Assembly: GCA_051306415.1 (NCBI GenBank)
Contig: JBPPNE010000074.1
Span: 1-57,836, forward strand
Direction: 5' to 3'
DNA length: 57,836 bases
DNA from: Porticoccaceae bacterium
Lineage (GTDB): Bacteria; Pseudomonadota; Gammaproteobacteria; Pseudomonadales; Porticoccaceae
Numbering within the stretch: the first letter of the stretch is position 1; the number at the start of each line of letters is the position of its first letter. This document shows positions 1,918-34,262 of the stretch, in pieces. The position numbers and the translations under genes were made by a program. Below the pieces are notes generated by a model, which did no database searches, was not told the DNA's origin, and saw only the letters and a program-made list of their open reading frames with translations.

Positions 1918-4900
1918 CTAGCCGAGCACAACGCGCAGCGTATGGGTTTGGCCGTCATCCGCCAAGGCAATCGCGTCTGTGGCAGTGAGCGCTTTGGCGT
2001 CGAGTTCAACGCGAGTTATCCCGCGACAGACATGGCCTGGATTTTCGACCGTGATGACGTAACGGGTGATGGCGTGTTGCCGGCCGCGCCGCCGGTAGGT
2101 GAGTTGGAAGCCGGCCCAATGTTTCGGAATGCACGGATCGATGCGCAGTTGGTCGCCGCGCAACTGGAAGCCGAGCACGGCCTCGAGACCGGCGCGATAC
2201 AGCCACGCGGCGGAGCCGGTGTACCAGGTCCAGCCGCCGCGGCCGATGTGCGGCGCAACCGAATAGACGTCCGCGCTGACGACATAGGGTTCCACCTTGT
2301 AGCGTGCCACGGCGTCGGCACTGTCGCTGTGGTGGATCGGGTTGAGCAGGTCGAACAGCGCACCGGCGCGATCGCCGTCACCGAGCCTGGCCCACGCAAA
2401 GACCGACCAGATCGCACCGTGTGTGTATTGGCCACCGTTCTCGCGTATGCCAGGCGGGTAGGCCTTGATATAGCCGGGATTCTTCGTGCTGTTGTCAAAC
2501 GGCGGAGTGAACAGTCGCGCGATCTGGTGCTGATGATCGACCAGCAGGCGATCGACCGAGGCCATGGCCTGCGCCGCGTGATGCGGGTTCGCTGCGCCAG
2601 CCAGCACGCTCCACGATTGCGCGATGGTATCGATTTGGCATTCCCCGCTTTCGTGCGAGCCCAGTGGCGTGCCGTCGTCGTAGTAGCCCCGGCAGTACCA
2701 CTGGCCGTCCCACGCCTGTTCCAATGCAACGCGCATGTCGGCGGCATAGTCGCGCCAGCGTTTTACGCGCTCGGTTTCGCCGCGCTGCTCGGCATAGGGC
2801 GCGAACGCCGCGATGGTGGCCAGCAGAAACCAGCCGAGCCAGCTGCTTTCGCCACGGCCCTGTTCACCGACGCTGTTCATGCCATCGTTCCAGTCGCCGG
2901 TTTCGATCAGCGGCAGTCCGTGCGCGCCGCGGGTCAGGCTGGAGTCGAGCGCGCGGGCGCAGTGTTCGTACACGCTGACTTTCCGGTCGGACTCGGTCGG
3001 TTGAAAGAGCGTGGTGGTGGCATCGGCAGGAATGACTTGGCCGACCAGGTAGGGCAACACTTCGTCCAGCACCGCGGCATCGCCGGTCACGTCGACATAG
3101 TGTGTGGCGACGTAAGTGAGCCAGATGCGGTCGTCGCTGATCTTGGTGCGGATGCCCTGACCGCCCGGCGGCAACCACCAGTGTTGCACGTCGCCCTCGG
3201 CAAATTGGCGCCCGGCCGCTCGCAGCAGATGTTCGCGGGCGAGATCGGGCCGGCTCACGCACAGCGCCATCACATCCTGCAACTGATCGCGATAACCATA
3301 CGCGCCGCTGGCCTGATAGTAGGCGGTACGCGCCCACAAGCGGCAACTCAGCACCTGGTACAGCAGCCAATCGTTGAGCATGATGTCCATCGCCCGATCC
3401 GGCGTGCGTACCTGTACGGTGTCGAGCAGGTCGTTCCACTGGGCGGCAACTTCGCCGAGTACCTGCTCGATGTCGGTCGCGCGATATTTCTCGATCAATG
3501 TCCGTGCTTCTGTTTCGTCAGCGGCATCACCGAGCAGGAAGACGATGTCAATCTGTGTATTCGGCGGCAGTTCGATTCGCGTCTGTAGTGCGCCGCACGG
3601 ATCAAGACCTGCGCCAAGGCGACCCGACAGCGGCGTGTTGTCTTGCAGCGCGGCAGGTTGGTCGAGCGCGCCGAACGGGCCGAGAAACGCGCCGCGATCG
3701 CCGCTCATCGAACATTGCTGGCCAGCCAGATCGACGAACGCGACGTGTCCGTCAAAATCACTGCGCCACGGATTGCGCGCAAACAGCGCACCGGTTTGCG
3801 CATCGCGCGAGGTGATCACGAACGGCGCCGGTGTGGTGCCGTTTGCGCCCAACGCCCATTCGACATAGCCGGTGATCGACAAGCGCCGCGTGCGCGCCGA
3901 GCGGTTGCACAGACGCAGCCGCGACAGCTTGATGGAATCGGCCACCGGCACGCACATGGTCAACTCCAAATCGATGCCGTGCGCATCGTTGGTGAAGCGG
4001 CTGGTGCCCTTGCCATGCAGGATGTGGTATGTCGCACCTGAGACGCGAATCGGCAGCGCGGTGGCGCTCCACAATGCGCCGCTGTCTTCGTCGCGCAGAT
4101 ACAGCGCCTCATGCGGACTGTCGCTGACTGGATCGTTCGGCCACGGCGTGATCGGATTCTGCTGGCCGTTGAGCGACCACGCATAGCCGCCGCCCTCGGC
4201 CGACACGAGGAAGCCGAACGCAGGGTTCGCGATCACATTGACCCACGGTAGCAGTGTGCAGCGCTCGTCGTCGAGATGGATGCGATACGAACGACCGGTC
4301 TGGCTGAAACCGCCGCTGCCATTGGCGAATTCCAGTGGGCTGTCCGGCGCGCTGGCGGCTTGTGCCGGCGTGCTGGCGCGGATGGGCGCGCCAGTCATGC
4401 CTGGCGCCGGTGCGGCAAGATCCGTGGTGCGTAGGGGTTCGTTGGCGTCGATCAACACGCGCGCCGCCGTCAGTAGGCCGTTGCGCAAGTCGTCGCTGAT
4501 CGCGCTGTCACGCAATGCAATCAGTTCGACTTTGACCGCTGCGGTGTCTGTTTTCAGCTGCGCCTGCTGCGCACTCACCAGCGGCTCAAGCGCACGGTGC
4601 AGCGCATCGCCGGCGGCGCCGGCAGCCGTATTCAAAAGCACCACATCGACGGCTAACTGCTTGCTGCGCCAGTCGTTTTGCGCCCGCAGCAACTCCTGCA
4701 CGCGCGCCAGCTCGGCCATGTTGTCGAGGCGCAGCAGCACGATCGGGCGATCACCGGAAATGCCGGCCGCCCACAGCGTGGGCGGGCCGCCGCGACCGCG
4801 CGCCAACGCGTCAGCTGCAGCGCGTTGGCGCGGATCGCTGATTACCACCGCACTCAGCCAGTGCGCAGAACGGGCGGCTTGCGCCGCGTCGGTGCCGGGG

Positions 4901-5832
4901 GGCGCGTGTTCAGCCGCGGCGTGGCGCGCGGCGCTGGTGAACAACTTCCCGGCGGCGTTCGCGTTGTCCAGCTGTGCGGTCAATGCCAGCGCGCCCTCTC
5001 GCGAATCGGCCAGTCGCGTCCACAGCAACAGCCGCACGCTGGCGCCGGGCGCGAGCGTAACGCGTTGGCGCAGGCTGAAGATAGGATCGAGCACGTAGCC
5101 GGTGGTGTTCGACAAGCTGGCGCCCGGCTGCATCGCCTGCGCATTACGCAGCGTGCGGCAGCGGCCGAGAAAACGCGCGCGATCGGTTTCATATTCGAGC
5201 GCGCGGTCGGCCGGCTGGCCCTCGATCTGCAGTGCGTGCGCTGCCCAGATAGCCGGCTCACTGTCCGCGCGCCGCCGCCGCGTGGCCAGTAACACGCCAT
5301 GTCGCGCATCCCATTCGGTTTGCACGAACATCTTGGAGAACGCCGGATGCGCGTTGTCGGGGCCGGCCGGGCCGACCACCAACTCGGTGAAGGAGATCAG
5401 CGATAACGTGCGTGGTTTGTCGCCATGGTTGTTCAGGGTGAGGCGGCGCAGCTCGATATCGGCTTCGCTGGCCACGGCGATTTCCAACGTGCTGTCCAGC
5501 GTGCCATCGCGGCGGACAAACTCGGCGCGGCCGGCGCTGAAATTCACCACATAATCCTGCGCTGCCGCGCCCAAGGGTTGCCGCGTGGCCGACCACACCG
5601 CGCCGCTGTCCTCGTCGCGCAGCAGCAGATAACTACCCCAGTTATCGCGGGTGGCATCTTCGCGCCAGCGCGTGACCGACAGGTCGCGCCATCGGCTGAA
5701 ACCAGAACCGCTGTCGCTGAGCATGACGCTATACGTGCCGTTCGAGAGCAGGCACAGCCGGCGTGTGGCGATGGCGGGGGGAGACGTGAGAGAGGGCATG
5801 GGCGATCCTGTCCGGGGGCGATGAAACTTCAA
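1918..5832 (-). CDS. GH94-family glycoside phosphorylase-like protein (NdvB C-terminal-like; candidate beta-1,2-oligoglucan phosphorylase)
   Basis: 1304-aa ORF. It carries the GH94 catalytic-region motif [13 protein letters not shown] and an alpha/alpha-barrel-type C-terminal half. Its start overlaps the tkt stop by 4 nt. Confidence 0.7.
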
Positions 5833-7949
5833 CGTGCCGCAGCGTCAGTACGCACGGCGTCACGTGAGGCTTCCTGATGGGGCGGTGTCGGAGGGCCGGA
5901 GATAAAAGCCAGCAGCGCCCTGGCGCGCGCGACCACATTGTCGACCGTGAAGCCGTACTCGCGCAGAAGAACCTCGGCCGGGGCGGAAGCACCGAAGCGT
6001 TCGATGCCGAGCATATCGCCGCGGTCACCGACGTAGCGGTACCAACCCTGGGACACGCCCAGCTCCACGGCCAGTCGGGCAGGCACGCTCGGCGGCAGCA
6101 CGTCGTCGCGGTAGCTTTGCGGCTGTGCATCAAACAGTTCCCAGCTCGGCATCGACACGCAGCGCACGGCGACGCCTTCATTTTGCAGACGCTCGGCGGC
6201 GGTGAGGATCAGGCCGACTTCGGAGCCGCTGGCGATCAAGATCAGTGCGGGTTGGCGATCCTTCGCGTCGCTCAGCACATACGCGCCACGGCGCAGGCCG
6301 TCGGCGCTGGCATAGCGGCTGCGGTCGAGCGTGGGCAAGTCCTGCCGGCTCAGTACCAGCAGCACCGGGCGGCCGCAGGTTTCCACGGCCACCTTCCACG
6401 CCACCGCGGTTTCGTTGGCGTCGGCGGGTCGGATCACGGTGAGGTTGGGAATCGCGCGCAGGCTGGCCAACTGTTCTACCGGCTGGTGGGTGGGGCCGTC
6501 TTCGCCGAGCGCAATGCTGTCGTGGGTGAACACGTGCACCACGTGCACGCCCATCAACGCGGCGAGGCGGATCGCCGGTCGCATGTAGTCGGAGAAAATC
6601 AGGAAGGTGGCGCCGTACGGGATGAAGCCGCCATGCGCGGCCAGTCCGTTGACGATGGCGCCCATCGCGTGCTCGCGCACGCCGAAGTGCAGGTTGCGGC
6701 CGGCGTAACTCCAGCCGCCGCTGTCGGCGCCCTGGGTATCGTCATCCTGACCGGACTGCGGATTGAAATCGCCCAGCCCTTTCAGTGCAGTGTGGGTGGA
6801 CGGGTCCAGATCGGCCGAACCGCCTCCAAGCGCAGGCAGTTTCGGTGCGAACGCATTCATGACCTTGCCGCTGGCGACGCGGGTGGCCATGCCCTTGGCA
6901 TCGGCGGGAAAGACCGGGATGTCCGCATCCCAACCCGATGGCAGTTCACCGCGCAGGCGACCTTGTAGTTCTTTCGCCAACTCGGGAAATGCCTTGGCGT
7001 AGGCGTCCAGCCGTTCGTTCCAATCGGCCTCGACCTTCGCGCCACGACCCAGTGCCTCGCGAAAATGCGCCAGCGCGGGCTCGGGCACCAGAAACGGCGG
7101 ATCGACCGGCCAGCCAAGCTTTTCCTTGGTTCTTTTTACATCCTCAACGCCGAGCGGCGATCCGTGTGCCTTGTAGCTATCCTGCTCGGGCGAGCCAAAG
7201 CCAATATGGGTACGCACCAGAATCAGCGAGGGTCGCGTGATGTCGGCGTGGGCGGCGTCCAGCGCGGCGCTGATCGCGGCCACGTCGTTGCCCTCGGCCA
7301 CGCAGATAGTCTGCCAGCCATAGGCTTCGAAGCGTTTGGCGCGATCTTCAGAAAATGTGATGTCGGTGCCGGCCGATAGCGTGACGTAGTTGTCGTCGTA
7401 CAGGCAGACCAACTTGCCCAGCTTGAGGTGTCCGGCCAGTGAGGCGGCCTCGGAGGCGACTCCTTCCATCAGGTCGCCGTCGCTGACGATGGCCCAGGTA
7501 TGGTGGTCGATCAGCGTGTGGCCGTCTCGGTTGTAGCGTGCGGCCAGACTCGCTTCACCGATCGCCATGCCGACTGCGTTCGCCAACCCTTGCCCGAGTG
7601 GCCCGGTTGTGACTTCAACACCCGGCGTATGCCCGCGCTCGGGATGACCCGGCGCCTTGCTGCCCCACTGGCGGAACTGCTTGAGGTCGTCCAGGGAGAG
7701 ATCGTAACCGGTCAGGTGCAGCAGGCTATAGAGCAGCGCCGAGCCGTGTCCGGCGGAAAGCACGAAGCGGTCGCGATCGAACCAGTGCGGATTGCGCGGA
7801 TTGTGCTTGAGCCGGCGTGTCCACAGCACATAGGCCATCGCCGCCGCACCGAGCGGCATGCCTGGGTGCCCGCTGTTGGCCTGCTGCACGGCGTCTACCG
7901 ACAGAAACCGCATGGTGTTGATGCAAAGCTGATCGAGTGGGTCTGACAT
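5829..7949 (-). CDS. tkt: transketolase
   Basis: 706 aa. The N-terminus [33 protein letters not shown]...FVLSAGHGS is typical of transketolase across the full length. Confidence 0.95.
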
Positions 7950-7987
7950 GGCTATTCCCTATATATGTGCAAATAGTGCGGTGCGCG

Positions 7988-9634
7988 TCAATGCTCCGTC
8001 AGCGCGCGGTCGACGATGGCCTGCGCCTCGCTCAACAGGCTGCGCAGGTGGTCTTCGCCGCGAAAGCTCTCCGCGTAAATCTTGTAAATGTCCTCGGTGC
8101 CGGACGGCCGCGCAGCGAACCAGCCGCTGGCGGTGACCACCTTGATGCCGCCGATCGGCGCGTGGTTGCCCGGCGCGCGGTCGAGCACATGCTCGATCTG
8201 CTCGCCGCCCAGTTGCGTGATCCGCACCTGGTGTGGCGAGAGTTTCGCCAGCTTCTGCTTCTGCCCGGGCGTGGCCGGTGCCTCGACACGGTCAGCCACC
8301 GGCTCGCCGAGGTCGCGGGCAAGCTCGCGGTAGCGTTCGCCGGGATCGCGGCCCAGGCGTGCGGTAATCTCCGCCGATAGCAACGCCGCGACAATACCGT
8401 CTTTGTCTGTCGTCCAGACGCTGCCGTCCTGACGGATAAACGCTGCACCGGCACTCTCTTCCCCGCCAAAGCCGAGCGAGCCGTCGAGCAAGCCATCCAC
8501 AAACCACTTGAAACCGACCGGCACCTCAAAGAGCCCGCGGCCGAGTTTCGCCGCGACGCGATCAATCATCTGGCTGCTTACGACTGTCTTGCCGACCGCC
8601 GCATCCTTGCTCCACTTCGGTCGATGCTGGAACAGATAGTCGATGACCACCGCCAGATAATGATTCGGCGGTAGCAATCCGGCGCCGGGGGTCACGATGC
8701 CGTGGCGGTCGTGGTCGGTATCGCAGGCGAAGGCGATGTCGAAGCGATCCTTGAGGCTGATCAGGCTCTGCATGGCGTAGGACGAGGAGGGGTCCATGCG
8801 AATCTGACCGTCCCAATCGACCGTCATGAAGCGGAAGGACGGATCGACGACTTCATTCACCACCGTGAGATTCAAACCATAGCGCTCGGCGATCGCGACC
8901 CAGTAGTGGACACCGGCACCGCCGAGCGGATCGACGCCCATGCCGATGTTTGCGTTACGAATGGCCTCCATGTCGAGCACCTTGTCGAGATCGTTGACGT
9001 AAGCGTTGAGGTAGTCGTGTCGGTGCGTGGTGGCGGCGCGCAGCGCCTTCTCGAAAGGGATTCTTTTCACGCCCTGGAGGCCGTCTTTCAGAAACGCGTT
9101 GGCCTGTGCTTCGATCCATCCGGTGACGCCGGTATCCGCTGGCCCGCCGCTGGGCGGGTTGTACTTAAAGCCGCCGCTGTCGGGCGGATTGTGCGACGGC
9201 GTGATGACAATGCCGTCCGCCAGCCCGCTATCGCGGCCGCGGTTGTAAGCAAGTATGGCGTGCGACACCGCGGGGGTGGGCGTGTATTCGTCCTTATCCG
9301 CAAGCATGACGTCCACACCGTTGGCCGCCAGCACTTCGAGCGCGCTGGCAAACGCTGGCTCGGACAGCGCGTGCGTGTCGATACCCAGAAACAGCGGGCC
9401 ATCAATGCCCTGCTGTGTCCGGTACTGGCAAACGGCCTGAGTAATAGCGAGCACATGCCCTTCATTGAAACTGTTCTCGAACGCGGAACCGCGATGCCCC
9501 GAGGTGCCGAACGCGACCTGTTGCGCGGGCACCGAGAAGTCAGGTATGCCGGTATAGTAGGCCGTCACCAGTTTGGGGATATTGGCCAGCATCGCCGGCG
9601 GGGCGGGTTTCCCTGCCAAAGGATTTGCTTTCAT
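7988..9634 (-). CDS. pgm: phosphoglucomutase (alpha-D-glucose phosphate-specific type)
   Basis: 548 aa with the active-site loop [16 protein letters not shown]. The start overlaps the fba stop by 4 nt. Confidence 0.9.
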
Positions 9635-10656
9635 TCGTTCTCCATCACGGCTGTGTATTTGCCTTGCGCAGCCGCGCTATTTAATCGCGCTCGCTTGTAT
9701 AACCCTTGCTGCGCAATCGACTTGTTCGCGGCCTCGCCGCGCCAAGCCTGGAGCACGGATGCCTGCAACGCGCGCCCGTATGAAAAGCTCAAGACCCAAG
9801 GTTGCTTCTCGACAGCGGCGTTCAAGGCATGGAGGTTGGCAGTGGCCGTTGCCTCGCCCTGACCACCGGAAAGGAAGTTGATCCCGGGCACCGCTGCTGG
9901 CACCGTGCGCCGCAGGCAGATAAGCGTTGCTTGCGCCACCTGTTGCGGCGTAGCGGGCTCCGGGCATGCGCGACCAGGCTCGACCATATTGGGTTTCAAA
10001 ATCATGTGCTCCAGCGTAACGCGTTGCCGGTGCAGCGCGTGAAATACCGCATGCAGGACTTCCTCCGTGACGCGTGCGGAAGTCGCCAGCGTGTGATCGC
10101 CGTCCATTAATACCTCGGGCTCCACGATAGGCACCAACTCTTGTTCCTGGCAAATGGCCGCATAACGCGCCAGCGTATATGCATTGCTTGCAATCGCCTG
10201 CGGCGTCGGGATATCCGCACCGACATGAATGACCGCGCGCCATTTGGCGAAACGCGCGCCCAGTTGCTTATACTCGCTTAGCCGCTGCGCCAGACCATCC
10301 AAGCCTTGCGTCACTGTCTCTCCGGGAAAGTTAGGCATCGGCACCGTGCCTTTATCCACCTTGATGCCGGGCACTATGCCCTGCGCTTGCAGTAACTTTA
10401 CTAGCGGAACGCCTGCGACACTTTTCTGTATAAGGGTCTCCTCGAACAGGATGACGCCGCTAATAAAACCATCCAGGCCGGGCGTGGAAAATAACAGCTC
10501 ACGGTAATCACGCCGGGTTTCCTCGGAGCTTGCTACATTCACCGCCTTGAACCGCTTTTCAATGGTGCCCACGCTCTCATCGGCCGCCAGAATTCCTTTA
10601 CCCGGCGCCGTTAGCTCGGCTACCGTCTTTGCTAACGCTTGTATGGATATCGACAT
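9631..10656 (-). CDS. fba: class I fructose-bisphosphate aldolase
   Basis: Motif [18 protein letters not shown]. The ATG at 10656 is preceded by GAGGTAGG and lies downstream of the preceding gene's stop (10703), so the ORF-track start at 10755 is rejected. Confidence 0.85.
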
Positions 10657-10702
10657 AAAACCTACCTCAGTTATCAGCGATCCGATAGTTTGAGCCGCAG
10701 TG

Positions 10703-11299
10703 CTATGTGCGGCGTGTATCGTTGAGCAGATGGATGACTGGCTCGTCCAAGTCATGATCGTACCCCAGAATACTCACGGAGGCCGTCGCAAGGTACAGGC
10801 GACGCGCTTCGAACGCAGGCAGCGCGATCCAGCGCGCAATGAGGATGCGTAATATGTGACTGTGCGCGAAGATCAGCACATCGCTTTCCAGCGCACGGAT
10901 CCGAGCAATGACACGTTCCGCGCGCGTAGCCACCTCCGCCAATGTTTCCCCGCTCGGGCAACCGTCTTCGAACAGACGCCAGCCGGGGTGCTCGGCCTGA
11001 ATATCGACAGTACGCATACCCTCGTAATCACCGTAATCCCATTCCATCAGATCAGGATCGATCTCTGCCGAGTCACCGAAACCCGCCAACTCGCCAGTCC
11101 GTTGTGCCCGTCGTAGCGGGCTGGTGAATACGTTGGCAAAACTCAAACCTTGCAAGCGCGCTCTCAATTCCTGCGCGGCGTGCTCGCCCCGTTCGGTAAG
11201 CTCAATGTCGGTACGACCGGTGTGCTGTCCGCTGATCGACCAAGCGGTCTCACCATGCCGAACCAGATAGACTTTGGGTAATACGTTACTCTTGTGCAT
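10703..11299 (-). CDS. histidine phosphatase (PGAM-like) family protein
   Basis: 198 aa. The N-terminal VYLVRHGETAWSISGQHTGRTDIELTERGE contains the RHG catalytic motif. Start and atpG stop share one nt (TAATG). Confidence 0.8.
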   Translation of the reverse strand: MHKSNVLPKVYLVRHGETAWSISGQHTGRTDIELTERGEHAAQELRARLQGLSFANVFTSPLRRAQRTGELAGFGDSAEIDPDLMEWDYGDYEGMRTVDIQAEHPGWRLFEDGCPSGETLAEVATRAERVIARIRALESDVLIFAHSHILRILIARWIALPAFEARRLYLATASVSILGYDHDLDEPVIHLLNDTRRT

Positions 11300-12189
11300 T
11301 ATTTCTCCTCTACACTCAGTGCTTCGAAGCCGGAGACGACGTCGAATAATTCCTCGTCAATATCGCTCTGACGCAGGCGATGAAACGTTCGGTTCAGGGT
11401 TTCCAGCAATTCGTCGATGTTTTTTTCGGCACGTTGCATCGCAGCCAGGCGGCTGGCGTTTTCGCTTGCCAGGGATTCGGCACATGCCCTGAAAAGTGAA
11501 ACGAAAAGATATTCGCGAAGCAGGGCACGCAACGTCTGCACCCCGCTATTCATGACCTCGGGCAAATTCCGGGTCGGCCAGCGGATGGCAATCAGATCGC
11601 GCCGCCACATTTCATCCAGCGGCAACAATCGTTGGCTCACGGGAGTATAGATCGCGCCAGACTCGGGACGGTTATGAAAAAGGTAAACCTGCGTGATCGC
11701 GCCCTGTTCACGCTGGGCTTCCATCTCGATCAGAATCTGCCCAATCAGAGGGGTAATGGCGTTGATTGAGTTCGGCAGGACAAAGCCTTCCCCCAGTTGT
11801 AGATCGGACTCCGCCAGGCGCGATTGAATGCGTTCACCGACCGCCCAGACTGTTTTTTGACCTGGCAGATTGTCCAGCGTCTGCACCACAAAGTCCGCCA
11901 TGACCTCATTGAATTGCCCAACCAGCCCCTGGTCAGATCCAAACACGATGGCACCTATCGCCCCGGTTTCCTTTTGCGGCGCTGGCGTCAAGGCATTCGC
12001 GGTTTCCCCTTGCCAGAAACTCGCGGCCAGGCCCAGTTGCACGGTCCGATAATAATCATCCAGCGCGCGCACCGCGTTCTCGTATTGCCCGATGTTCGAC
12101 GCGGCCAAGGCCTTCATCGTGCGCACCACGGATTCGAGATCGCCGGCCGTGGCGATCTTGCGGCGCAGGCTGGCCGTGGTGTTGCTCAT
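11299..12189 (-). CDS. atpG: N-type (alternate) F1 ATPase gamma subunit
   Basis: 296 aa. The N-terminus LRRKIATAGDLESVVRTMKALAASNI and the C-terminal helix RLRQSDIDEELFDVVSGFEAL are gamma-like. It is the last gene of the atpDCQRBEFAG order. Confidence 0.8.
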   Translation of the reverse strand: MSNTTASLRRKIATAGDLESVVRTMKALAASNIGQYENAVRALDDYYRTVQLGLAASFWQGETANALTPAPQKETGAIGAIVFGSDQGLVGQFNEVMADFVVQTLDNLPGQKTVWAVGERIQSRLAESDLQLGEGFVLPNSINAITPLIGQILIEMEAQREQGAITQVYLFHNRPESGAIYTPVSQRLLPLDEMWRRDLIAIRWPTRNLPEVMNSGVQTLRALLREYLFVSLFRACAESLASENASRLAAMQRAEKNIDELLETLNRTFHRLRQSDIDEELFDVVSGFEALSVEEK

Positions 12190-12228
12190 GACTGCTCCGA
12201 GGGGTTTCGCCCAGTCGTCCGTCGCACT

Positions 12229-12540
12229 TTATCGTTCCGCGCGTTCCAGCGTGCTTTCGATCATTCGCGCCAATTTATCGGCTGCGCCGTCGACGGCCTG
12301 ATCCAAATTCGCCGTCGTGTGGGTAACCGCCATGGGCTGGCGGCCTTCGAGGCGGGCTTCCATCATGCAGCGCTTGTCGTGTTGGCCGCTCTTGTCGGCG
12401 TTCTCGTCGCTCAGGTGCAGCTCCACACGCGTGATGTGATCGCTGAATCGACTCAGGGCATGCTCCACTTTGTCGCGCAGTGGTGCCGCCATCGTCTCAT
12501 CGATTTTGATGTTGCGGTCGGTGTTGATCTGGATTTGCAT
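12229..12540 (-). CDS. HPF/RaiA-family ribosome-associated (hibernation) factor, short form
   Basis: 103 aa. MQIQINTDRNIKIDETMAAPLRDKVEHALSRFSDHITRVELHLSDEN shows the typical HPF/RaiA beta-alpha pattern. Confidence 0.7.
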   Translation of the reverse strand: MQIQINTDRNIKIDETMAAPLRDKVEHALSRFSDHITRVELHLSDENADKSGQHDKRCMMEARLEGRQPMAVTHTTANLDQAVDGAADKLARMIESTLERAER

Positions 12541-12577
12541 GGTTTGCTCCTTTGATTGAGTTGAATTGACGATCGGC

Positions 12578-13732
12578 TCAGAACCGGAAGTCCGCCGCTA
12601 CGCCGGTCTGCGTTGGCATGCGCTGAGATGGCATGACCACAACCCGGCCACCTGCCTTGGCGACCATCTCGCCCAGGTCGTCGAGCAGGTCATCGACTTC
12701 CGGGTGGCTCAGGCCAGCGAATTCGATCCGGCCTGTTGTGCTGTCCAACCGGCCGGCCAGTTGGCGGTCGGCCTCGATCAGCAGCGTTGCGACTCGTCCA
12801 TGGACTGCCGCTTCGGCCACCTGGGCCAGATCGTCGCTGCCCAGTTGCTTCGCCCTGGCTTGTTCGAATTCCTCGACCAGCGTGGTCAGTCGCGCCTGAT
12901 ACTCGGGTTCTATGGTCTGCCAGGCGAGCACCCGAAGCTCATCGAGCGGCAGCGCTGCAGTGTTGAGCGTGATGCCATCGGCCACCAGAAACGGGTTGTG
13001 GCTGACCGCGTGAAAGAGGTGATGATGCTCGGGCAAAGCGGCCAGGATCAGCGGCAAACCCGAGGGGTTGGAATGCTGTTCCAGCACCGCACGGTCGACG
13101 GCACGGAAGAATTTTTCGGCGTCCAGGTCTACTTCGTCCTTTTTACCGCCTGTGCTGTGATGCATGGGCTGGCGTCCCTGGCCGACGCCGCCATGGGAGC
13201 TTACTTTTTGCTGCGGCTCGGTCAACTCCCCGCCTAGGGCGTCCTCGATGGTGCGAGGCACGCCTGGCGCCAGTTCGATCTCGTCAAGCGCATCGCGGTT
13301 GCCCTCGAAAAGTCGAATGTGATGGCGGGACAATTCAAGAACCTGGTAGCGATCAGCCGATTGCAAAATACGCCGCAAGGGCTTGGTATGAAAGCTGTCG
13401 GCGACGACGACCAGTTCGTCGACCGGCCGTTGTAGCAGGAACACGCGCAACAGGCCCGATCCGCTCAGCACGGCAAGTCCATCCAGCGTATGTTCCCAGA
13501 AGGCTCGATCCCGAGCGAACGCTTCAAACGGTTCCAGAAGCGGTTGGGCCTCGGCGGGCGAATGCTTCTCCAGCAGCGATGCCGCCAACTGCTTTACCAG
13601 ATTGCCGAAGCGGATGGGATCCTGCTGGTTGTCCGGATGGTGTCGGTGCGTCGGCTGGTAGAGCGAGAGACAAGGCGGTTGTTGAGCCGATACCAATTCG
13701 GCCAGCGATTCGGGGGTGAGCAGATTCATCAT
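12578..13732 (-). CDS. eRF1-like 'baeRF' family protein (probably the baeRF3-type; recalled)
   Basis: 384 aa. The N-terminal signature [29 protein letters not shown]...[12 protein letters not shown]...[10 protein letters not shown]...[16 protein letters not shown] matches my memory of bacterial archaeo-eukaryotic release-factor-like proteins. The start overlaps the atpA stop (ATGATG/TGA at 13729-13732). Confidence 0.55.
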
Positions 13733-15381
13733 GACTTCCTCTTGGGTGTTGCGTCAGACTTGGGTTGAAGCTGATCTTCATCCGGTTCGACGTCGGGTTC
13801 GGGTTCGGCTGTCGTTTCAGCCTTCTGTTCAGGTGCGAGCTTGGGGGCAGCTTTGGACAGGAAGTCTTCGAGCGCAGCGCGGCCAATCTCGACGATGCTT
13901 GCGCGGTCTTCGTCGCTCAATTTGTCGGCGGTATCAAATCGCGCGGTCACCTCATCCGGGATGTCCACCGCCGCCTCGCGCACGGCATTTTCGGCATCGG
14001 TCATCTGGTCAAGCGGCACGCCGTCAAACAGCTCCGCTGTCAGCGCCAGCAGCACGGCAATTTGCGCGGGTACGGAAACTGGGGAAAATTCCGGCTGCTT
14101 GAGGCAGGCGCGGATGCGCCGCCCGTGTTCGATGATCTTGCGGGTGTCTTCGTCCAGCCGGGCGCCGAAGCGGGAAAAGGTTTCGAGTTCCTCAAACTGG
14201 GCGTAGGCGAGCTTGAGGTCGCCCGCCACGGCACGGTAGGCGGCGCGCTGCGCCTTGCCGCCGACGCGCGAGACGGATTTTCCGACATCGACCGCGGGCA
14301 GCACGCCCAGTTCGAACAGTGACGGCGACAGATAGATCTGCCCATCGGTGATGGAAATCAGGTTGGTCGGAATGTAGGCGGAAATATCCTGCGCCTCGGT
14401 TTCGATAATGGGCAGTGCCGTCAGCGATCCGCCGCCGAGTTCCGGGCGCAAGTGCGTTGCGCGCTCCAGCAGCCGCGAGTGGATGTAAAAAATGTCGCCG
14501 GGAAATGCTTCGCGACCGGGCGGACGCCGCAGCAGCAAGGACAACTCGCGGTAGGCACGCGCATGATGGGTGAGGTCGTCATACACAATCAGCACGTCAC
14601 GACCCTGCTCCATGAAATGCTCCGCGATGCTGGTCGCGGCGTAAGGCGCGATATAGGCGAGGCCGGGCGGATCGTTGCCTTCGGTGACGACCACGATGGT
14701 GTATTCCAACGCGCCATTTTCGCGCAGGGCGGCGATCACCTTGGCCACGCCGGAGGCGCGCTGGCCAATGGCGCAATACACGCACAGCACATTCTGGTCG
14801 CGTTGATTGAGTATCGTGTCGAGCGCGATCGCGGTCTTGCCGGTTTGTCGGTCGCCCAGAATCAACTCGCGCTGGCCGCGCCCAACGGGAATGAGCGCAT
14901 CGATGACCTTGATGCCGGTTTGCAGCGGTACGGCGACAGGAGCTCGGTCCATGATAGGCGGAGCGGGGCGCTCGACGGGCAGACGTGTGCTGGAAACCAC
15001 CGAACCCTTGCCGTCCAGTGGACGCCCCATGGGGTTGATGATTCGTCCGATCAACCCGTCACCCACCGGAACGTCCACCACGTGGCCCGTGCGGGCGACT
15101 TCATCGCCCGCATGCAAATGCCAGTAGTCGCCCAACAGAACGACGCCGATTTCGTCTTCGTCGACGTTGAATGCGATGCCATACATATCGCCGGGAAACT
15201 TCAGCACCTCCTCAAACCCCACGCCGGGGAGGCCGGAGACTTTTGCGATGCCGGTGGCAATGCTGGTGATCGTGCCGACTTCCCGTGGCCTCAGTTGCGG
15301 CGTGTATGCTTCCCGCACCTGGCCTATTCCGGCAATCGCGCTATCGAAAACATTCTGAAGGCTCTCGGGTTCCATGGTCAT
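13729..15381 (-). CDS. atpA: N-type F1 ATPase alpha subunit with a ~40-aa Pro/Glu/Lys-rich C-terminal tail
   Basis: 550 aa with the Walker A motif GDRQTGKT and alpha-type blocks. The tail [40 protein letters not shown] lies beyond the conserved core. Confidence 0.9.
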
Positions 15382-16475
15382 TGATTTTTTGTTACCGGCT
15401 TAACTTCGGCTTCTGGTTCGGGCTCTACTTCAGGTTTAGATTTAACTTCAGGTTTCGGCTCGACTTTGGATGCAGGTTTAGCTTCGTCTACAGATTCAGG
15501 ATCAGCTTTATCTTCTGACTTAGGCTTCACTGTGCTTTCAGATTCGGCTTTGATGGGTTTATGAGTCTTTTCCCGAATGTCGTGCTCTGCCTGCTCCCAA
15601 TCCTCGGCGGCATGGCCGGTCTTGCGGCCATGCTCCTCGTAGATCTCGTAGGCTCGTTTCCCGATCCGCTGTGTCAATTCTGACGGTTTCTTTGCCTGTG
15701 CCTGGGCTTCAACCTTCTCCTTCTCTTTCAGCAGTTCGGCTACGCCATTTTCCAGCGACGTCAGGTAATCCGCGATGCTCCACGCCACTTTTTGTCCATT
15801 CGCCGTGAGCTCAATGCCGCTGATCAGTTCCGGCGCGGTCTCGAAGCGTATCTTGATTTCAGCCGAAAAGGTTTGGTTGAGCGTCTGCTGTATCGCTGTG
15901 CGCTGCGCTTCGGGCAGGTCAAAGGCGCTACGCACCAGCGCGGGTTCCGATGCTGTCTTGAGCGACTCGCCGATGCTTTTTTTCTCCGGCTCGTCCATCT
16001 CGCTCAAGCGACGGGCGAACACATCGGCCAGGCGTTCTTCCAGGCTTGCCCCGGCGAGTTCCGTCAGCGCCTTGCGAGCGATGGCGAACACTTCCTGTTG
16101 GGCCCGGCGGCTGATGGCCTGATTCAGGTGATGGGCGTCGTTTCTCAGCGTTTCTTGCCGCTTGGCGCTCAAGGCATCGGCCGCCTGCCGTGCTTCGTCC
16201 AGGAGCCGCAGACGTTCGGCCTTCGCCTCATCCATCGCCTGACTCAAGAGGGTGGCGCGCTGCTGCTCGAATGCTTCGTTCTTGTGCTGGAATTCGTCGC
16301 GCTCCTGCTGGGCTTCGGCCTTTTTTGCGTCGGCGTCTGCGAGCTTCTTGGCGATCCGCTTCTCGCGCGCGTCGATGGCGTCGAGGATGGGCTTGTAAAG
16401 AAAGCGCTTCAGCAACCACACCAGGATGAGGAAGTTGATGACTTGCGCAGAAACGGTGAACCAATCGATCAGCAT
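15378..16475 (-). CDS. atpF: N-type Fo subunit b fused to a DUF2934-like segment and a Pro/Glu/Lys repeat tail
   Basis: 365 aa. The N-terminal TM segment plus coiled coil ([26 protein letters not shown]) is b-like. It is followed by [31 protein letters not shown] (DUF2934-like) and [20 protein letters not shown] repeats. Confidence 0.8.
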
Positions 16476-16477
16476 GG

Positions 16478-16759
16478 CTACTTACCGGCGACTTGGGCGA
16501 TAGCCTGATTCCAGAACGGATTGGCAAAAAGGAGAATCATCGAGACCACGAAACAGTAGATGGCCGTCGACTCGATCATCGCCAGGCCGACGAACAGGGT
16601 ACGGGTGATGGTGGCGGAAGCATCAGGCTGCTGGGCCAGCGAAGTCAACGCTGTCGCGACCGCCCTCCCTTCGCCCAGTGCCGGAGCCATGGTGCCGAAA
16701 CCGGTGGTGATGCCGGCAGTGACAATCGATGCCACCGCGATGATCGTCATGCTATCCAT
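16478..16759 (-). CDS. atpE: N-type Fo subunit c
   Basis: 93 aa helical hairpin with loop AQQPDA. Helix 2 carries IESTAIY (ESTxxY, Na-type signature). Helix 1 has GEG where Na-type F-ATPases have GQG. Confidence 0.85.
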   Translation of the reverse strand: MDSMTIIAVASIVTAGITTGFGTMAPALGEGRAVATALTSLAQQPDASATITRTLFVGLAMIESTAIYCFVVSMILLFANPFWNQAIAQVAGK

Positions 16760-16789
16760 AGTGTCTCCTTTGGTCGTTGCGTTGTGGGT

Positions 16790-17491
16790 TCATGGGTTGG
16801 GTTCTGCGACAGGCTCGGGTTCCGGCTTGCGGACGCGCGTGGCGGCCGCGATGTAGACAGTGGCCAGGATGAAGAAAATGTAGGCCTGCACCATGCCGGT
16901 GAGCAGGCCGAGCACCGTCATGACAATCGGAAAGATGAAGGGCGTGATGCTCATCAGGATGCCGATGATCATCGCCCCGCTCATCATGTTGCCAAACAGG
17001 CGGATGGCCAGGGCCAGCGTGCGCGAGATTTCGCTGATGATATTGAACGGCAGCATGATGAACGTCGGCTTCGTGTAGGAGGCGAGGTAAGCCCCCAGTC
17101 CCTTCTGTTCCATGCCGAACAGCGGCACGGCCACGAACACGCACAGGGCGAGTGCCGCCGTGGTCGAGAGCGATCCCGTCGGCGGCTGGTAGCCGGGAAT
17201 GACGGTGCAGAGGGCGGCCATGGCGACAAACAGGAAGAGCGTGCCCAGAAATCCGAGATATTTCCGCGGCTGACTCAGGCCGACCTCTTCGATTTGTTTC
17301 TCGATGGCGGTGACGACGATTTCCAGAAGGTTCTGCCAGCGGGAGCGTTCCAACTCCATGGAAAGTCTGTGGGTGATGAGCTTTGAACCGACCGCCAGCA
17401 CGAGCATCACCCCCCAGGTGAACACAATGGTGGCGTTGAGTTTAAGGAACCCGTATTCCCAGAAGATCATTTCGTCTGGACTAAGGCGCAT
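16790..17491 (-). CDS. atpB: N-type Fo subunit a
   Basis: 233 aa polytopic protein with the conserved Arg region ISRTLALAIRLFGNMMSG. Confidence 0.85.
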   Translation of the reverse strand: MRLSPDEMIFWEYGFLKLNATIVFTWGVMLVLAVGSKLITHRLSMELERSRWQNLLEIVVTAIEKQIEEVGLSQPRKYLGFLGTLFLFVAMAALCTVIPGYQPPTGSLSTTAALALCVFVAVPLFGMEQKGLGAYLASYTKPTFIMLPFNIISEISRTLALAIRLFGNMMSGAMIIGILMSITPFIFPIVMTVLGLLTGMVQAYIFFILATVYIAAATRVRKPEPEPVAEPNP

Positions 17492-17795
17492 GGCGGGTCT
17501 CCGATGCCTGGCGGATTGGGTGTTCTTCCGATGGCCGGGTCAGCCGCGTCACAATGAGGCGCGCGATGACAAAACCGAGCAGACCCGCGACGAGTCTCTG
17601 CCAATTGTCCCCCAGGACAAAATAGAACCCCAGCAGTACAACACTTGTTCGAAGCAGCATGCTGCTTAGAAACCAAAGTGCCGCCCGTTCAGACGCAACA
17701 CCCTTGCGCACCGTCCACCAAAGGCCGCCGAAAAAAATAGCGCCGAGCAGCAGGCCCGCCATCCATGCCAGCGCCAGCGTCAACCATTCATTCAT
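17481..17795 (-). CDS. atpR: N-ATPase AtpR subunit
   Basis: ATG at 17795 (MNEWLTLALAWMAGLLLGAIFFGGLWWTVRKG). It is a small 3-TM protein in the AtpR position of the operon. The ORF-track start at 17873 is rejected because it runs back through the atpQ coding region. Confidence 0.7.
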   Translation of the reverse strand: MNEWLTLALAWMAGLLLGAIFFGGLWWTVRKGVASERAALWFLSSMLLRTSVVLLGFYFVLGDNWQRLVAGLLGFVIARLIVTRLTRPSEEHPIRQASETRHAP

Positions 17796-18112
17796 GCTTA
17801 TCTTCCTGTTCGTCCCGCATGGCTTTGTCTTCCCGTGTAACCCAATGCCACGCATTGAAACAGCCGATGGCAAGCCCGGCCACCAGCAGCGCCAGTGTCC
17901 AGGACCGGCCGCCCGGATAACGCTGGTCCAGCCAGATCCCGAGCGCCGCGCCGAGCAGCGTCGGAATCGCCACCGACCAGCCGATAATCCCCATCATGCC
18001 CAGGCCAAACCAGACGCCCGGCGCGGCGTTGCGCCGTGCCTTGAGCTTGCGCGCGGCCTTCGCACCGACCTCCTGACTGAGCGACGGCTTCGAGGGCTTA
18101 CTCTGGCTTTCG

Positions 18113-18120
<8 letters not shown>
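17788..18120 (-). CDS. atpQ: AtpZ/AtpI-like N-ATPase AtpQ subunit
   Basis: 110 aa, two TM helices (GVWFGLGMMGIIGWSVAIPTLLGAALGIWLD), in the position after atpC. Confidence 0.7.
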
Positions 18121-21490
<3,370 letters not shown>

Positions 21491-21498
21491 TTCCAGTT

Positions 21499-21738
21499 TC
21501 AAATCTCCGGCAGATCCTCGCCATGCACACCGATATACTTCCGGTGCTCAAGGAGTTTGTTGCGGAAGACTTGTTTCACGTACGCAGCGCGGTTGGTGCG
21601 GCCGGGCAAGCGATCAATCACGTCCGCGATGAGATGAAAACGATCCAGGCCGTACTTCGCCACCATATCGAACGGTGTCGCGTTCGTGCCTTCTTCCTTG
21701 AGACTGCACACAATGACCTTGATGCCGAACTCGAACAA
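21499..21738 (-). pseudogene. 3'-terminal remnant of a phosphoketolase gene
   Basis: KEEGTNATPFDMVAKYGLDRFHLIADVIDRLPGRTNRAAYVKQVFRNKLLEHRKYIGVHGEDLPEI aligns with the last ~70 aa of the intact Xfp ([66 protein letters not shown]). No upstream phosphoketolase sequence is present. Confidence 0.8.
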
Positions 21739-22348: not shown

Positions 22349-23725
22349 TCACGCTGAGGCCGACTCAGCCTGCCGCGGCGTCGTGAGCAGGACGATAATA
22401 CCGACGGTGGCGGCCAGCAACGACGCGAACAGAATGCCCAGCTTGGCCTCGCTCTCCAGGTCAGAGCCCGGGAAAGCCAAGCCACTGATGAAGAGCGCCA
22501 TGGTAAACCCGATGCCGGCCAGGAACGCCGTGCCGACCACATGCCGCCACGACACTCCCTCGGGCAGCGTGGCCAGCCCCGCCTTAACGGCGAGCCAGCT
22601 CGCCACACCGATGCCCAACGGCTTGCCGATGACGAGCCCGGCGATGATGCCCAGCGGCACTGCAGAGGCCAGCGTTTGCAGTGCTGACGCGTCGATCTCG
22701 ACCCCCGCGTTGAATAGTGCGAACACCGGCAGGATCGCGTAGGCCACCCAGGGTTGCACCCCGTGCTCAAAACGCTGGAGGGGTGAGGTGGCGGCATCGA
22801 GCGTGCGGCGCAGCAGGTCGATGAGCGCGATGCGCTCGGGGTCCATCGCATCGGGCTGCTCGTCGCTGGTCTGGGCATCGATGCCGGCCGCGCTGCGGCG
22901 GATCACCTGCGTCAGGGCCGCGGGCACGATCTTCACCCGCGCAGGAACGAACATGGCCGTCAGCACGCCGGCCAGCGTGGCATGCACGCCCGAGATGAGC
23001 AGGCCGGACCACACACCGACCGCCAGCACCAGGTATATCGCGCCGCTGCGGGCGCCCGCGCGGTTCGCGCCGAAGAGCGCGGCCACGAACAGGGAAGCCA
23101 GTGCGATGCCGCTCCATTCGATCGACGCGGTGTAGAAGATTGCAATGATCAGCAGCGCACCGAGATCGTCGACGATCGCCAGCGCGACAAGGAACACCTT
23201 CAGCCCTTCCGGAATGCGCGCACCCAGTACCGCGAGCGCCCCGAGCGCAAAGGCGATGTCGGTCGCCATCGGGATGCCCCATCCATGGGCACCTTCACCA
23301 CCGGTATTGAACGCAACGTAGATCAGGGCCGGTGCGATCATTCCGCCGACAGCGGCGGCGATCGGCAACATCGCCTCGCGACGCTCAGCCAGTTCGCCGA
23401 TGAGAAATTCGCGCTTGATCTCAAGACCGACGGTGAAGAAGAAGATCGCCATCAGGCCGTCGTTGATTACGTGTTGCAGATCGAAGCGCAGAGGGTAATC
23501 GCCGATCGAGACACCGAGCGGCATATGCAGCATCCGTTCGTAGGCGCTCGCCCACGGCGAGTTGGCCCAGCCCAGCGCCACGGCGGCAAACAGCAGTAAC
23601 AACAGACCGCCGGAAACCTGCCATCTGGCAAACTGCTGGAACGGGAGCAGCAGCAGATCACCGGCGCGCTCGGCCTGCGTGCGAGCGAGCATTTCATTCT
23701 TGCGAACCAGCTTGCGGATCTTCAT
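22349..23725 (-). CDS. nhaA: Na+/H+ antiporter NhaA
   Basis: The ATG at 23725 overlaps the upstream stop as ATGA. Blocks WINDGLMAIFFF-like (VINDGLMAIFFFTVGLEIKRE), ATDIAFALG and PVFALFNAGV are NhaA signatures. Confidence 0.85.
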   Translation of the reverse strand: MKIRKLVRKNEMLARTQAERAGDLLLLPFQQFARWQVSGGLLLLLFAAVALGWANSPWASAYERMLHMPLGVSIGDYPLRFDLQHVINDGLMAIFFFTVGLEIKREFLIGELAERREAMLPIAAAVGGMIAPALIYVAFNTGGEGAHGWGIPMATDIAFALGALAVLGARIPEGLKVFLVALAIVDDLGALLIIAIFYTASIEWSGIALASLFVAALFGANRAGARSGAIYLVLAVGVWSGLLISGVHATLAGVLTAMFVPARVKIVPAALTQVIRRSAAGIDAQTSDEQPDAMDPERIALIDLLRRTLDAATSPLQRFEHGVQPWVAYAILPVFALFNAGVEIDASALQTLASAVPLGIIAGLVIGKPLGIGVASWLAVKAGLATLPEGVSWRHVVGTAFLAGIGFTMALFISGLAFPGSDLESEAKLGILFASLLAATVGIIVLLTTPRQAESASA

Positions 23726-24045
23726 GTCGCACCAAGACGCTCGAGGCTGTGATGGCTCGGAACGACCGATTCGTGCAGCGCCCGGTTCGCCGCCGGGTAC
23801 CGGTCTTCCGCCTCTCGGCGGCCCTCCTCTTCCGGCAACCCCTCGCGAGCGCACCGGATGTCCCGCTGTGCCAGGCGACTCAGCGCGGAACCCAATCGGT
23901 CCACGCACACGACCGCCGTGAACGGCTCGTTGATGCTGGGCGAGAGCGCACGCATCGCGATCTCGACGAGTTGGTGGACGGCAAACTCCATGTCTTGAGC
24001 AGCGGCCCGCTGATTTCCCAATGCAAAGGATGTGGTGTCGCTCAT
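23722..24045 (-). pseudogene. DUF2254 C-terminal-domain fragment
   Basis: FAVHQLVEIAMRALSPSINEPFTAVVCVDRLGSALSRLA aligns with [39 protein letters not shown] of the full-length copy (28210-29556). Only ~45 aa are homologous. Confidence 0.55.
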
Positions 24046-24051
24046 GTTTTT

Positions 24052-26383: not shown

Positions 26384-26462
26384 AAGTTTTTGTTCGTTGT
26401 CTTCCGCCTAGTCAAAAGCGGCACGTCGTGGCCAAGCCTATTTTCGGGGATCGAACCGACCA

Positions 26463-27140: not shown

Positions 27141-27168
27141 TTTGCATTGCTCCATTTCCGCTGGCGCA

Positions 27169-28044: not shown

Positions 28045-28205
28045 CCTTTCGTCTGCGCCTCGGCCTGACTGAGGCCGTCTGGCGACTCTAGGGCGGGCAC
28101 TCGGTTGATGACGTCGGCGATAAAATGAAAGCCATCCAGATCATTCATCACTGCCGTGTCGAACGGAGTCGAGGTCGCGCCTGCCATTTCCGGGTTCGGT
28201 TTCAT
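28041..28205 (-). pseudogene. second 3'-terminal phosphoketolase remnant
   Basis: [27 protein letters not shown] aligns with [27 protein letters not shown] of Xfp. The rest has diverged. Its stop overlaps the ppk2 start by 4 nt. Confidence 0.6.
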
Positions 28206-28209
28206 AACC

Positions 28210-32820: not shown

Positions 32821-32883
32821 TCTTTCTTTGCCGACGGAGCCAGGCCTTGCTTCCTGGCCGAGCGACGATAGAGGCGGGCGGGA

Positions 32884-34128: not shown

Positions 34129-34230
34129 GGAAGACTCCTTCGTCGTTCTGAAAACCGAACGAATCCAGTTTCGTGCACATCCAGGACCACGCGGGCAATG
34201 GCTGTCACTAGCCCTGGTGTCTCGCGTCCC

Positions 34231-34259: not shown

Positions 34260-34262
34260 ATG

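Follow-up and report, generated by a model that had tools for sequence, protein, structure and literature searches.

A putative Balon-RaiA hibernation gene pair at the atpA/atpG junction of the N-ATPase operon in a Porticoccaceae bacterium

The DNA analyzed here, which we will call the window, is a stretch of 57,836 nucleotides (nt) comprising positions 1-57,836 of contig JBPPNE010000074.1 (assembly GCA_051306415.1) from a Porticoccaceae bacterium. Its minus strand carries a complete operon for an N-ATPase in which two genes foreign to the ATPase lie between those for the alpha and the gamma subunits, i.e., atpDCQRBEFA-(two genes)-G. The first of the two codes for a 384-amino acid (aa) protein related to the ribosome hibernation factor Balon, and the second for a 103-aa protein of the HPF/RaiA type. 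The operon was delimited from its open reading frames (ORFs) and by a family scan. Identities were obtained from Pfam, NCBIfam and PDB sequence searches, and folds from AlphaFold and Foldseek. The genes are, in operon order:

18492-20045, minus strand: atpD, with the ATG at 20045 as probable start
18113-18517, minus strand: atpC
17788-18120, minus strand: atpQ (Pfam ATPase_gene1)
17481-17873, minus strand: atpR (PF12966, 102.2 bits; TIGR03165, 100.6 bits)
16790-17491, minus strand: atpB
16478-16759, minus strand: atpE, c subunit
15378-16475, minus strand: atpF (TIGR03321, 341.6 bits against a cut-off of 224.7), an ATP-synt_B protein with an OSCP-like end
13729-15381, minus strand: atpA, alpha subunit (TIGR03324, alternate alpha, 932 bits against a cut-off of 750.5)
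12578-13732, minus strand: 384-aa ORF, putative Balon type (PF18845)
12229-12540, minus strand: 103-aa ORF, short HPF/RaiA type (PF02482)
11299-12189, minus strand: atpG, gamma subunit (TIGR03323, alternate gamma, 452 bits against a cut-off of 282)

The presence of both AtpR and AtpQ assigns the operon to the N-ATPase type. All nine N-ATPase genes are found, in the canonical order save for the two inserted genes, and a delta subunit is lacking. The part from atpD to atpF (15378-20045) gave matches to TIGR03321, TIGR03165 and TIGR02230, showed 66-99% aa identity to other N-ATPase operons and has overlapping gene junctions. In the translation of the c subunit a Glu replaces the Gln of helix 1 (ALGEGRA) and is accompanied by an ESTxxY motif (MIESTAIYC), the combination that was used by Dibrova et al. 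(2010; PMC2881411) to predict Na+ binding. The enzyme would be an ATP-driven rotary pump, probably of Na+. The alpha (13729-13866), b (15378-15730) and beta (18492-18650) subunits carry C-terminal extensions of low complexity, rich in K, E and P, and the AtpF tail (15378-15730) includes a DUF2934.

The 384-aa protein matched Pfam PF18845 (baeRF_family3) with an E-value of 4e-50 and 170.8 bits, the cut-off being 31.5. Its matches in NCBIfam were two ribosome hibernation factor families and nothing else. One of them is NF052287, the AOC03_06830 family to which Balon belongs, and the alignment was full-length (residues 11-384 against positions 2-361 of 361). The sole significant PDB sequence match was the Balon of Psychrobacter urativorans (8rd8_B, E-value 6.8e-18, residues 12-379). 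When a moderate AlphaFold model was compared with the PDB by Foldseek, three chains of P. urativorans Balon ranked first (8rdw_B, 8rd8_B and 8rdv_B; E-value ~4e-18, TM-score ~0.42-0.45), and mycobacterial Balon (Msmeg1130, Rv2629), archaeal aRF1, eukaryotic eRF1 and Pelota/Dom34 came at lower ranks, a ranking that supports a three-domain aeRF1-like fold. A string search of the translation found neither GGQ nor NIKS, only a GGK at residues 195-197. The most conserved block, nearly invariant among homologs, is THRxHPxNxQDPI in the N-domain (residues 28-40), opposite THREHPANDQDPI in the alignment with P. urativorans Balon. The block contains H32-P33, with P33 invariant in 43 homologs, and this dipeptide is likely the HP motif of the Balon paper, whose text numbers no residues. 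In the C-terminal domain, the model places short strands at 326-329 and 336-338 between a core strand (314-320) and a helix (349-359), with a pLDDT of ~76-89, as a candidate counterpart of the hairpin by which Balon contacts EF-Tu.

A further feature of this protein is a GGKKD sequence at residues 195-199 (13138-13152 in the window), located in the loop before the long helix of the middle domain, roughly at the position of the eRF1 GGQ. Among the 43 homologs G195 and D199 were invariant and G196, K197 and K198 were conserved in 90% or more, and P. urativorans Balon has no GGKKD in the aligned loop.

The gene is under purifying selection, with dN/dS values of 0.13-0.22 against its three closest relatives. 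It belongs to a highly conserved sub-clade of Balon, with at least 68% identity across the best 120 database clusters, whose records include proteobacterial, planctomycete and Chloroflexota ones. We infer from these data that the product is a putative Balon-type (eRF1-fold) ribosome hibernation factor, which would bind the ribosome as its characterized homologs do.

The 103-aa protein matched PF02482 (Ribosomal_S30AE) with 39.3 bits, over a cut-off of 23.7, residues 7-100 aligning with profile positions 4-86 of 88. With TIGR00741 (yfiA) it scored 32.3 bits, under the equivalog cut-off of 40.9, which indicates a divergent subfamily. The best PDB match was a ribosome-bound "ribosomal subunit interface protein" of Acinetobacter baumannii (7m4z_v, E-value 1.4e-21, residues 1-102), and RaiA of P. 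urativorans (8rd8_D) was matched weakly (E-value 0.0096). As the protein ends right after the S30AE domain, without the C-terminal dimerization domain of long HPF, it belongs to the short RaiA/HPF type. Its gene is likewise under purifying selection (dN/dS 0.18-0.40 against the three closest relatives). By homology, it would be a short HPF/RaiA-type hibernation factor, with ribosome binding expected from its characterized homologs. For brevity the two genes are called Balon and RaiA below.

Both genes are closely packed with their neighbors. The TGA of atpA overlaps the ATG of the 384-aa ORF (ATGA), RaiA is preceded by a gap of 37 nt that includes an AAAGGAG Shine-Dalgarno sequence, and atpG by one of 39 nt with GGAG. 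A scan for sigma-70 promoters and intrinsic terminators from 5.5 to 24.5 kb gave counts no higher than the shuffled expectation, with none between atpA and atpG. The gene packing suggests that the pair would be co-transcribed with the operon. For expression in stoichiometry with the pump, which had been put forward in an initial annotation of this DNA, the ATGA overlap is no more than a hint.

The closest uninterrupted N-ATPase operon that we recovered (locus L081) allowed the boundaries of the extra segment to be drawn. Compared with the window, its AtpB showed 96% aa identity, and atpA and atpG 90.7 and 85.8% nt identity, respectively. In blastn the homology was confined to 15379..13867 and 12189..11317, i.e., it breaks off at 13867 and resumes exactly at the ATG of atpG (12189), from which we conclude that the two genes are an insertion. 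The segment is:

12190..13866, minus strand: inserted segment, 1,677 nt extra with respect to L081 (blastn)

It is made up of Balon, RaiA, the two spacers and about 46 codons by which atpA is longer at its C-terminal end. Three other loci (L001, L003 and L083) have the same AtpA tail, which travels with the Balon cassette and is missing in L081. The initial annotation had described these ORFs, with their coordinates, the overlap with the atpA stop and gaps of 37-39 nt, and all of it proved exact; its assignments to eRF1-like/baeRF and HPF/RaiA were borne out by above cut-off profile matches (PF18845 and PF02482), the structural comparison with eRF1/Dom34 returned eRF1-fold proteins with the Balon chains first, and the DNA comparison with L081 confirmed its claim that the pair is inserted inside an N-ATPase operon between atpA and atpG. 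It had also considered that the insertion could be unique to this strain and decaying. We found no signs of decay in either gene, both being under purifying selection, and the arrangement is not confined to this strain but is found in other lineages, so that this objection fails.

The recurrence of the linkage was assessed in three samples: 80 genomic loci of the Balon clade (forward sample), 80 metagenomic N-ATPase operons, 27 of them covering the atpA-atpG junction (reverse sample), and nine contigs of the closest relatives, with identities of 70-87%. In the forward sample RaiA adjoins Balon in 38 of the 80 loci, and N-ATPase genes or remnants do so in seven (L001, L002, L003, L010, L011, L020 and L046). 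Counting all samples, the association was found at four positions: between atpA and atpG, between atpR and atpB, between atpD and atpC, and divergently upstream of atpD. The first is that of the window and of L003, L010, L087, L161, L162/163, L167 and L172. A Chromatiaceae locus from a MAG (L003) has an arrangement identical to that of the window, and at the same junction a Desulfobulbaceae locus (L010) has Balon together with a CMAS-type methyltransferase and an AI-2E transporter. In Rhodocyclaceae SMB388 (L020) Balon stands alone between atpR and atpB, and in Luteolibacter (L046) the genes between atpD and atpC are a PRC-barrel, a BON, Balon, a 162-aa ORF of unknown kind and RaiA. The three remaining loci (L001, L002, from Thiocapsa imhoffii DSM 21303, and L011) have Balon and RaiA beside mere fragments of atpA, atpQ, atpG or atpR.

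Three of the 27 junctions in the reverse sample are occupied by RaiA, one of them with Balon (L087) and two with RaiA only (L083 and L108). In another of the 27 (L100) the Balon gene belongs to an operon that runs divergently from atpD and lies 1.2 kb upstream of it. At one of the RaiA-only junctions (L083, 13680-13772) all that is left of Balon is its initial 11 codons (MTNLLAPESLA) with a TAA after them, a clear scar of deletion which indicates that Balon was lost secondarily. Among the nine closest relatives, four have the pair or its remains embedded between atpA and atpG (L161, L162/163, L167 and L172; in L163 Balon is kept and RaiA degraded), one keeps an atpA fragment before Balon-RaiA (L165), and four have no ATPase (L164, L166, L173 and L174). 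In a neighbor-joining tree the ATPase-linked Balons fell into at least four separate groups that match the different positions. From the positions, the tree groups and the remnants among relatives we conclude that the association has arisen several times and been lost several times.

Two loci of a Balon sub-clade with 387-aa proteins deserve mention for their junctions. In L087 (8660-8764) a duplicated 5' end of atpG, about 35 codons long, lies between atpA and Balon, and looks like an insertion scar at a former atpA/atpG overlap. At the same place L167 (7811-7936) has a 41-aa ORF, compared with this duplication by position only.

All-against-all clustering of the ORFs flanking the 80 Balon loci gave RaiA as the commonest neighbor, and N-ATPase genes, a P-type ATPase and DUF2254 among the next real families, with 3-5 loci each. 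This result is qualitative only, because the longest-ORF calls were spoiled by antisense ORFs in GC-rich loci. In the plasmid collection no close relative of this Balon was found (identity up to 31%), and two plasmid Balon contexts that were inspected contained ordinary stress genes (cytochrome bd, USP, PRC-barrel, Dps) and no N-ATPase. Conversely, no hibernation genes were found in the plasmid-borne N-ATPase operons of Legionella and Acaryochloris.

The operon is itself part of a larger structure in the window, which can be described by two blocks:

1918..21502, minus strand: tightly packed array that includes the operon (Pfam; FBA, PGM and TKT were read from ORF translations rather than from a family scan)
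22349..34652, minus strand: upstream island genes (Pfam): NhaA, MscS+BON, PPK2, DUF2254, Xfp phosphoketolase, BrkB/YihY, acetate kinase and DUF302

The array runs from pyk through the N-ATPase operon with Balon and RaiA to a His_Phos_1 phosphatase, a class I FBA, PGM, TKT and a GH94 glucan phosphorylase, about 20 genes joined mostly by ATGA or TAATG overlaps or by gaps of up to 50 nt. The stop of pyk overlaps the start of atpD (ATGA), and together with the tight packing this makes the N-ATPase operon probably not an independent transcription unit here. The gene of the NhaA Na+/H+ antiporter is located 2 kb upstream of the array. Fragments of the 3' end of xfp are present at 21487-21699 and 28083-28181, and fragments of DUF2254 at 25820-26383 and 23863-24030. 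These remnants precede pyk, PPK2, MscS and NhaA, while intact copies of xfp and DUF2254 are found at 28210-31921. The presence of such fragments before several modules indicates a recombination mosaic, and it looks as if the island had been assembled by repeated recombination at xfp and DUF2254.

The families of this island recur around relatives of Balon in several other loci (L010, L161, L162, L173 and L174). DUF2254 and PPK2 are found upstream of atpD in the Desulfobulbaceae locus L010, Xfp adjoins the operon in L161 and L020, and L167 has PGI upstream. Around Balon-RaiA in L173, a locus without any N-ATPase, are AckA, Xfp, DUF2254, FBA-I, a Na+/H+ exchanger, a P-type ATPase and PPK2. The set of genes common to the surroundings of Balon relatives, with or without ATPase, also includes pentose-phosphate enzymes.

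A few other elements of the window may be noted. Two paralogous putative glucoamylase genes (PF10091; 441-1739 and 45018-46319) are 76% identical at the aa level and lie 43 kb apart. Between about 38100 and 46700 there are 8-9 copies of a unit of ~70 aa, 47-92% identical save one near 31%, some forming small ORFs of their own and some the N-terminal part of a 1110-aa protein, which look like heavy-metal-associated (HMA) domains. Beside them, putative P-type ATPases were read from ORFs at 35680-37614, 39285-42617 and 51859-54564. At 56678-57774, ORFs of 96 and 269 aa look like the two frames of an IS3-type transposase.

We consider that the pair and the N-ATPase are probably co-regulated members of a laterally mobile energy-limitation or dormancy island, and would give this reading a probability of about 0.6. 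The inducing condition and the logic of energy triage are taken from context only. In this reading, the two-gene hibernation cassette that has entered an N-type ATPase operon between atpA and atpG would be read as part of that operon, the translation of Balon being coupled to that of atpA by the ATGA overlap, and RaiA and atpG being translated from their own Shine-Dalgarno sequences. When respiration fails, only a little ATP would be made by fermentation or from polyphosphate: breakdown of stored glucan via phosphoketolase, acetate kinase and pyruvate kinase would provide substrate-level ATP, and PPK2 would use polyphosphate. This scarce ATP would be spent on the N-ATPase and the ion gradient would be kept, with NhaA, MscS and the P-type ATPases serving ion homeostasis. 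Meanwhile Balon, at the A site with EF-Tu-GDP, and RaiA, at the decoding region of the 30S subunit, would silence and protect the ribosomes. The initial annotation had suggested a dormancy module linking translation shutdown to ATP-driven maintenance of ion gradients, and the context fits this idea: pyk, FBA, PGM, TKT and GH94 are in the same array, Xfp, AckA, PPK2 and NhaA are near, and the linkage is recurrent.

A broader proposal can be made, that N-ATPase operons are in general dormancy pumps, that they have captured hibernation genes at least four separate times, and that both travel on a mobile energy-triage island together with phosphoketolase, acetate kinase, pyruvate kinase, PPK2 and Na+/H+ exchangers. 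We advance it tentatively, and would sooner bet against it than for it. If it were true, the role of the N-ATPase would be to maintain ion gradients while cells are starved of energy, do not grow and have translation switched off. The roles proposed for these enzymes include the extrusion of Na+ under salt and the pumping of protons under acid conditions, and in Methanosarcina deletion of the N-ATPase reportedly left growth and ATP synthesis visibly unchanged. A recurrent link at the level of the operon gives a testable hypothesis for both pump and Balon, namely their joint induction under energy limitation. To Psychrobacter and mycobacteria, outside which little is known about the deployment of Balon, the link adds environmental lineages such as Rhodocyclaceae, Chromatiaceae and Desulfobulbaceae (L001-L003, L010 and L020) and Luteolibacter (L046). 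A large and highly conserved sub-clade of Balon spreads laterally inside or beside N-ATPase operons.

Several observations weigh against a functional island. Most genomic loci of the Balon clade have no ATPase nearby, and atpA directly adjoins atpG in 24 of the 27 sampled operons, so the linkage is facultative; this agrees with the order atpA-atpG described by Dibrova et al. (2010; PMC2881411), as the initial annotation had stated. The neighborhood census showed both a recurrent association with N-ATPase and a facultative linkage, most N-ATPase operons lacking the pair. Among relatives, L083 has lost Balon, L163 has lost RaiA, and L001, L002 and L165 have lost the ATPase genes, which indicates that neither partner needs the other. 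Unrelated genes also enter these operons: Acaryochloris marina pREB4 has a cation:proton antiporter between atpQ and atpR (L170, 4874-6103), and L142 an unrelated 251-aa ORF of unknown kind between atpC and atpQ (8520-9275). Scans of regulatory sequences gave nothing in favor. There were two matches to an FNR/Anr box (TTGAT-N4-ATCAA, up to one mismatch) against 0.97 expected, none of them upstream of the operon, so that hypoxic control of the Anr type is unsupported, and the scan for sigma-54 promoters gave four matches against 6.7 expected, with no shared regulatory motif. The identification of the 384-aa protein has its own weak points, since its score with NF052287 (E-value 8e-52, 176.9 bits) is under the equivalog cut-off of 330 bits, making it a homolog of Balon and not an equivalog by the NCBI threshold, its identity to P. 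urativorans Balon is only ~21%, and the AlphaFold model, built with 43 homologs, is moderate to mediocre (pLDDT 63.5).

The 251-aa ORF of L142 was tried as a stand-alone baeRF domain and rejected; it had no Pfam match, and hhalign against the Balon alignment gave a probability of 7.8%.

The main rival explanation is that a mobile Balon-RaiA stress cassette has settled in a permissive junction of a mobile operon, borrowing its promoter with no tie to ion pumping. Such hitch-hiking, which would leave no more than a known pair in a new genomic setting, would account for the presence of the pair in many unrelated contexts, both in our forward sample and in the literature (Helena-Bueno et al., 2024; PMC10901736), and is consistent with the lateral mobility of N-ATPase operons (Dibrova et al., 2010; PMC2881411), with their acceptance of other insertions (the A. 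marina antiporter and the ORF of L142), with an island that is a recombination mosaic, and with a facultative linkage in which losses of either partner are common. It accounts less well for association at four positions in separate Balon lineages and for the link to N-ATPase genes in about half of the sampled closest relatives. N-ATPase genes are, moreover, among the most recurrent neighbors after RaiA (3-5 loci, in the qualitative clustering of flanks), and the same catabolic and ion-homeostasis families surround Balon relatives even where the ATPase is missing. We regard it as an unlikely explanation, yet one to be taken seriously.

The two remaining alternatives concern the proteins themselves. 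That the eRF1-like protein acts on stalled ribosomes, as a Dom34/Pelota-like rescue factor or as an alternative release factor, seems improbable to us. The fold is that of eRF1/Pelota, a rescue role has been considered for some baeRF families (Burroughs and Aravind, 2019; PMC6514570), and a conserved GGKKD loop is found at the location of the eRF1 GGQ, but without GGQ there is no catalytic glutamine, which makes rescue or release unlikely, and there is no NIKS either. The best sequence and structure matches are to Balon solved on hibernating ribosomes, its gene has RaiA/HPF as a partner, just as in P. urativorans, and only hibernation factor families were matched in NCBIfam. Of the silencing or rescue pair that the initial annotation had envisaged, hibernation is thus retained, on the homology to Balon and RaiA, and rescue is not, given the missing motifs and the hibernation factor relatives. 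The other alternative, that the two proteins were recruited by the N-ATPase as assembly factors, inhibitors or subunits, e.g., replacing regulation of the delta/epsilon type, we find barely credible. Their genes do lie between those of two F1 subunits, and an extended AtpA tail travels with the cassette; but both are full-length, conserved members of ribosome-binding families, and the widespread occurrence of the same proteins (50-79% identity) without any ATPase makes a direct role in the pump unlikely. Most N-ATPase operons, besides, lack the pair, and ATPase genes decay while the pair is kept. The preferred reading is still that of co-regulated members of one mobile island.

The Balon-RaiA module itself is known from papers of 2019 and 2024. 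In the first (Burroughs and Aravind, 2019; PMC6514570), baeRF-1 families were reported to share operons persistently with HPF/YfiA, and a function as non-catalytic blockers of the A site was predicted for them. Balon, i.e., AOC03_06830 of P. urativorans and Msmeg1130/Rv2629 of mycobacteria, was characterized in 2024, when its structure on hibernating ribosomes was solved, with RaiA on the same ribosome and with EF-Tu(GDP) (8RD8/8RDV/8RDW, 8V9J-L), and the RaiA gene was reported as the most frequent neighbor of Balon genes (Helena-Bueno et al., 2024; PMC10901736). ATP synthase is unmentioned in both papers and in a 2025 preprint on the evolution of hibernation factors, and in the searchable literature we found no single paper dealing with N-ATPase and hibernation, or with N-ATPase and phosphoketolase. 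Insertions of one and two genes in N-ATPase operons have been mentioned for cyanobacteria only, the two-gene case being Cyanothece (Dibrova et al., 2010; PMC2881411), and of these we have identified that of A. marina. The low-oxygen locus lxa of Burkholderia cenocepacia was considered as an equivalent and rejected, since neither an N-ATPase nor a phosphoketolase nor a ribosome factor is listed in the paper that describes it. The suggestion of the initial annotation that the arrangement was undescribed thus applies to the location in the operon and not to the pair (PMC6514570, PMC10901736). What appears to be new is the recurrent location of a hibernation pair in N-ATPase operons, of which no described case was found in the searchable literature.

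Compared with Balon, the 384-aa protein shares the three-domain aeRF1-like architecture, the absence of GGQ and NIKS, the conserved block of the N-domain and a gene beside RaiA/HPF. It differs from the P. urativorans protein in its low identity and sub-cut-off score, in the GGKKD loop, in belonging to a laterally spread sub-clade, and in the location of its gene inside an ATPase operon, a context unmentioned in PMC10901736. With the baeRF_family3-HPF systems (PMC6514570) it has in common the family and the operonic association with HPF described there, and differs in the setting, since ATP synthase or ATPase operons are not mentioned as a context in that text. The 103-aa protein resembles short HPF/RaiA (YfiA, pY; PF02482) in being a single S30AE domain of ~100 aa, with 7M4Z chain v as the closest solved structure; it is divergent, and by its sequence it may act either as RaiA (a stabilizer of 70S) or as short HPF (forming 100S with RMF).

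Described N-ATPases have been argued to be ATP-driven pumps and not synthases, encoded by laterally mobile operons in which atpA normally directly precedes atpG (Dibrova et al., 2010; PMC2881411), and that of B. pseudomallei has a c17 ring (Schulz et al., 2017; PMC5376962). The operon of the window is like them in its nine genes, its AtpR and AtpQ, the lack of delta, the long OSCP-ended AtpF and the signature of the c subunit. It departs from them in the two non-ATPase genes between atpA and atpG, in alpha, beta and b subunits that end in low-complexity tails, and in its surroundings, with pyk joined upstream by an ATGA overlap and genes of sugar catabolism downstream.

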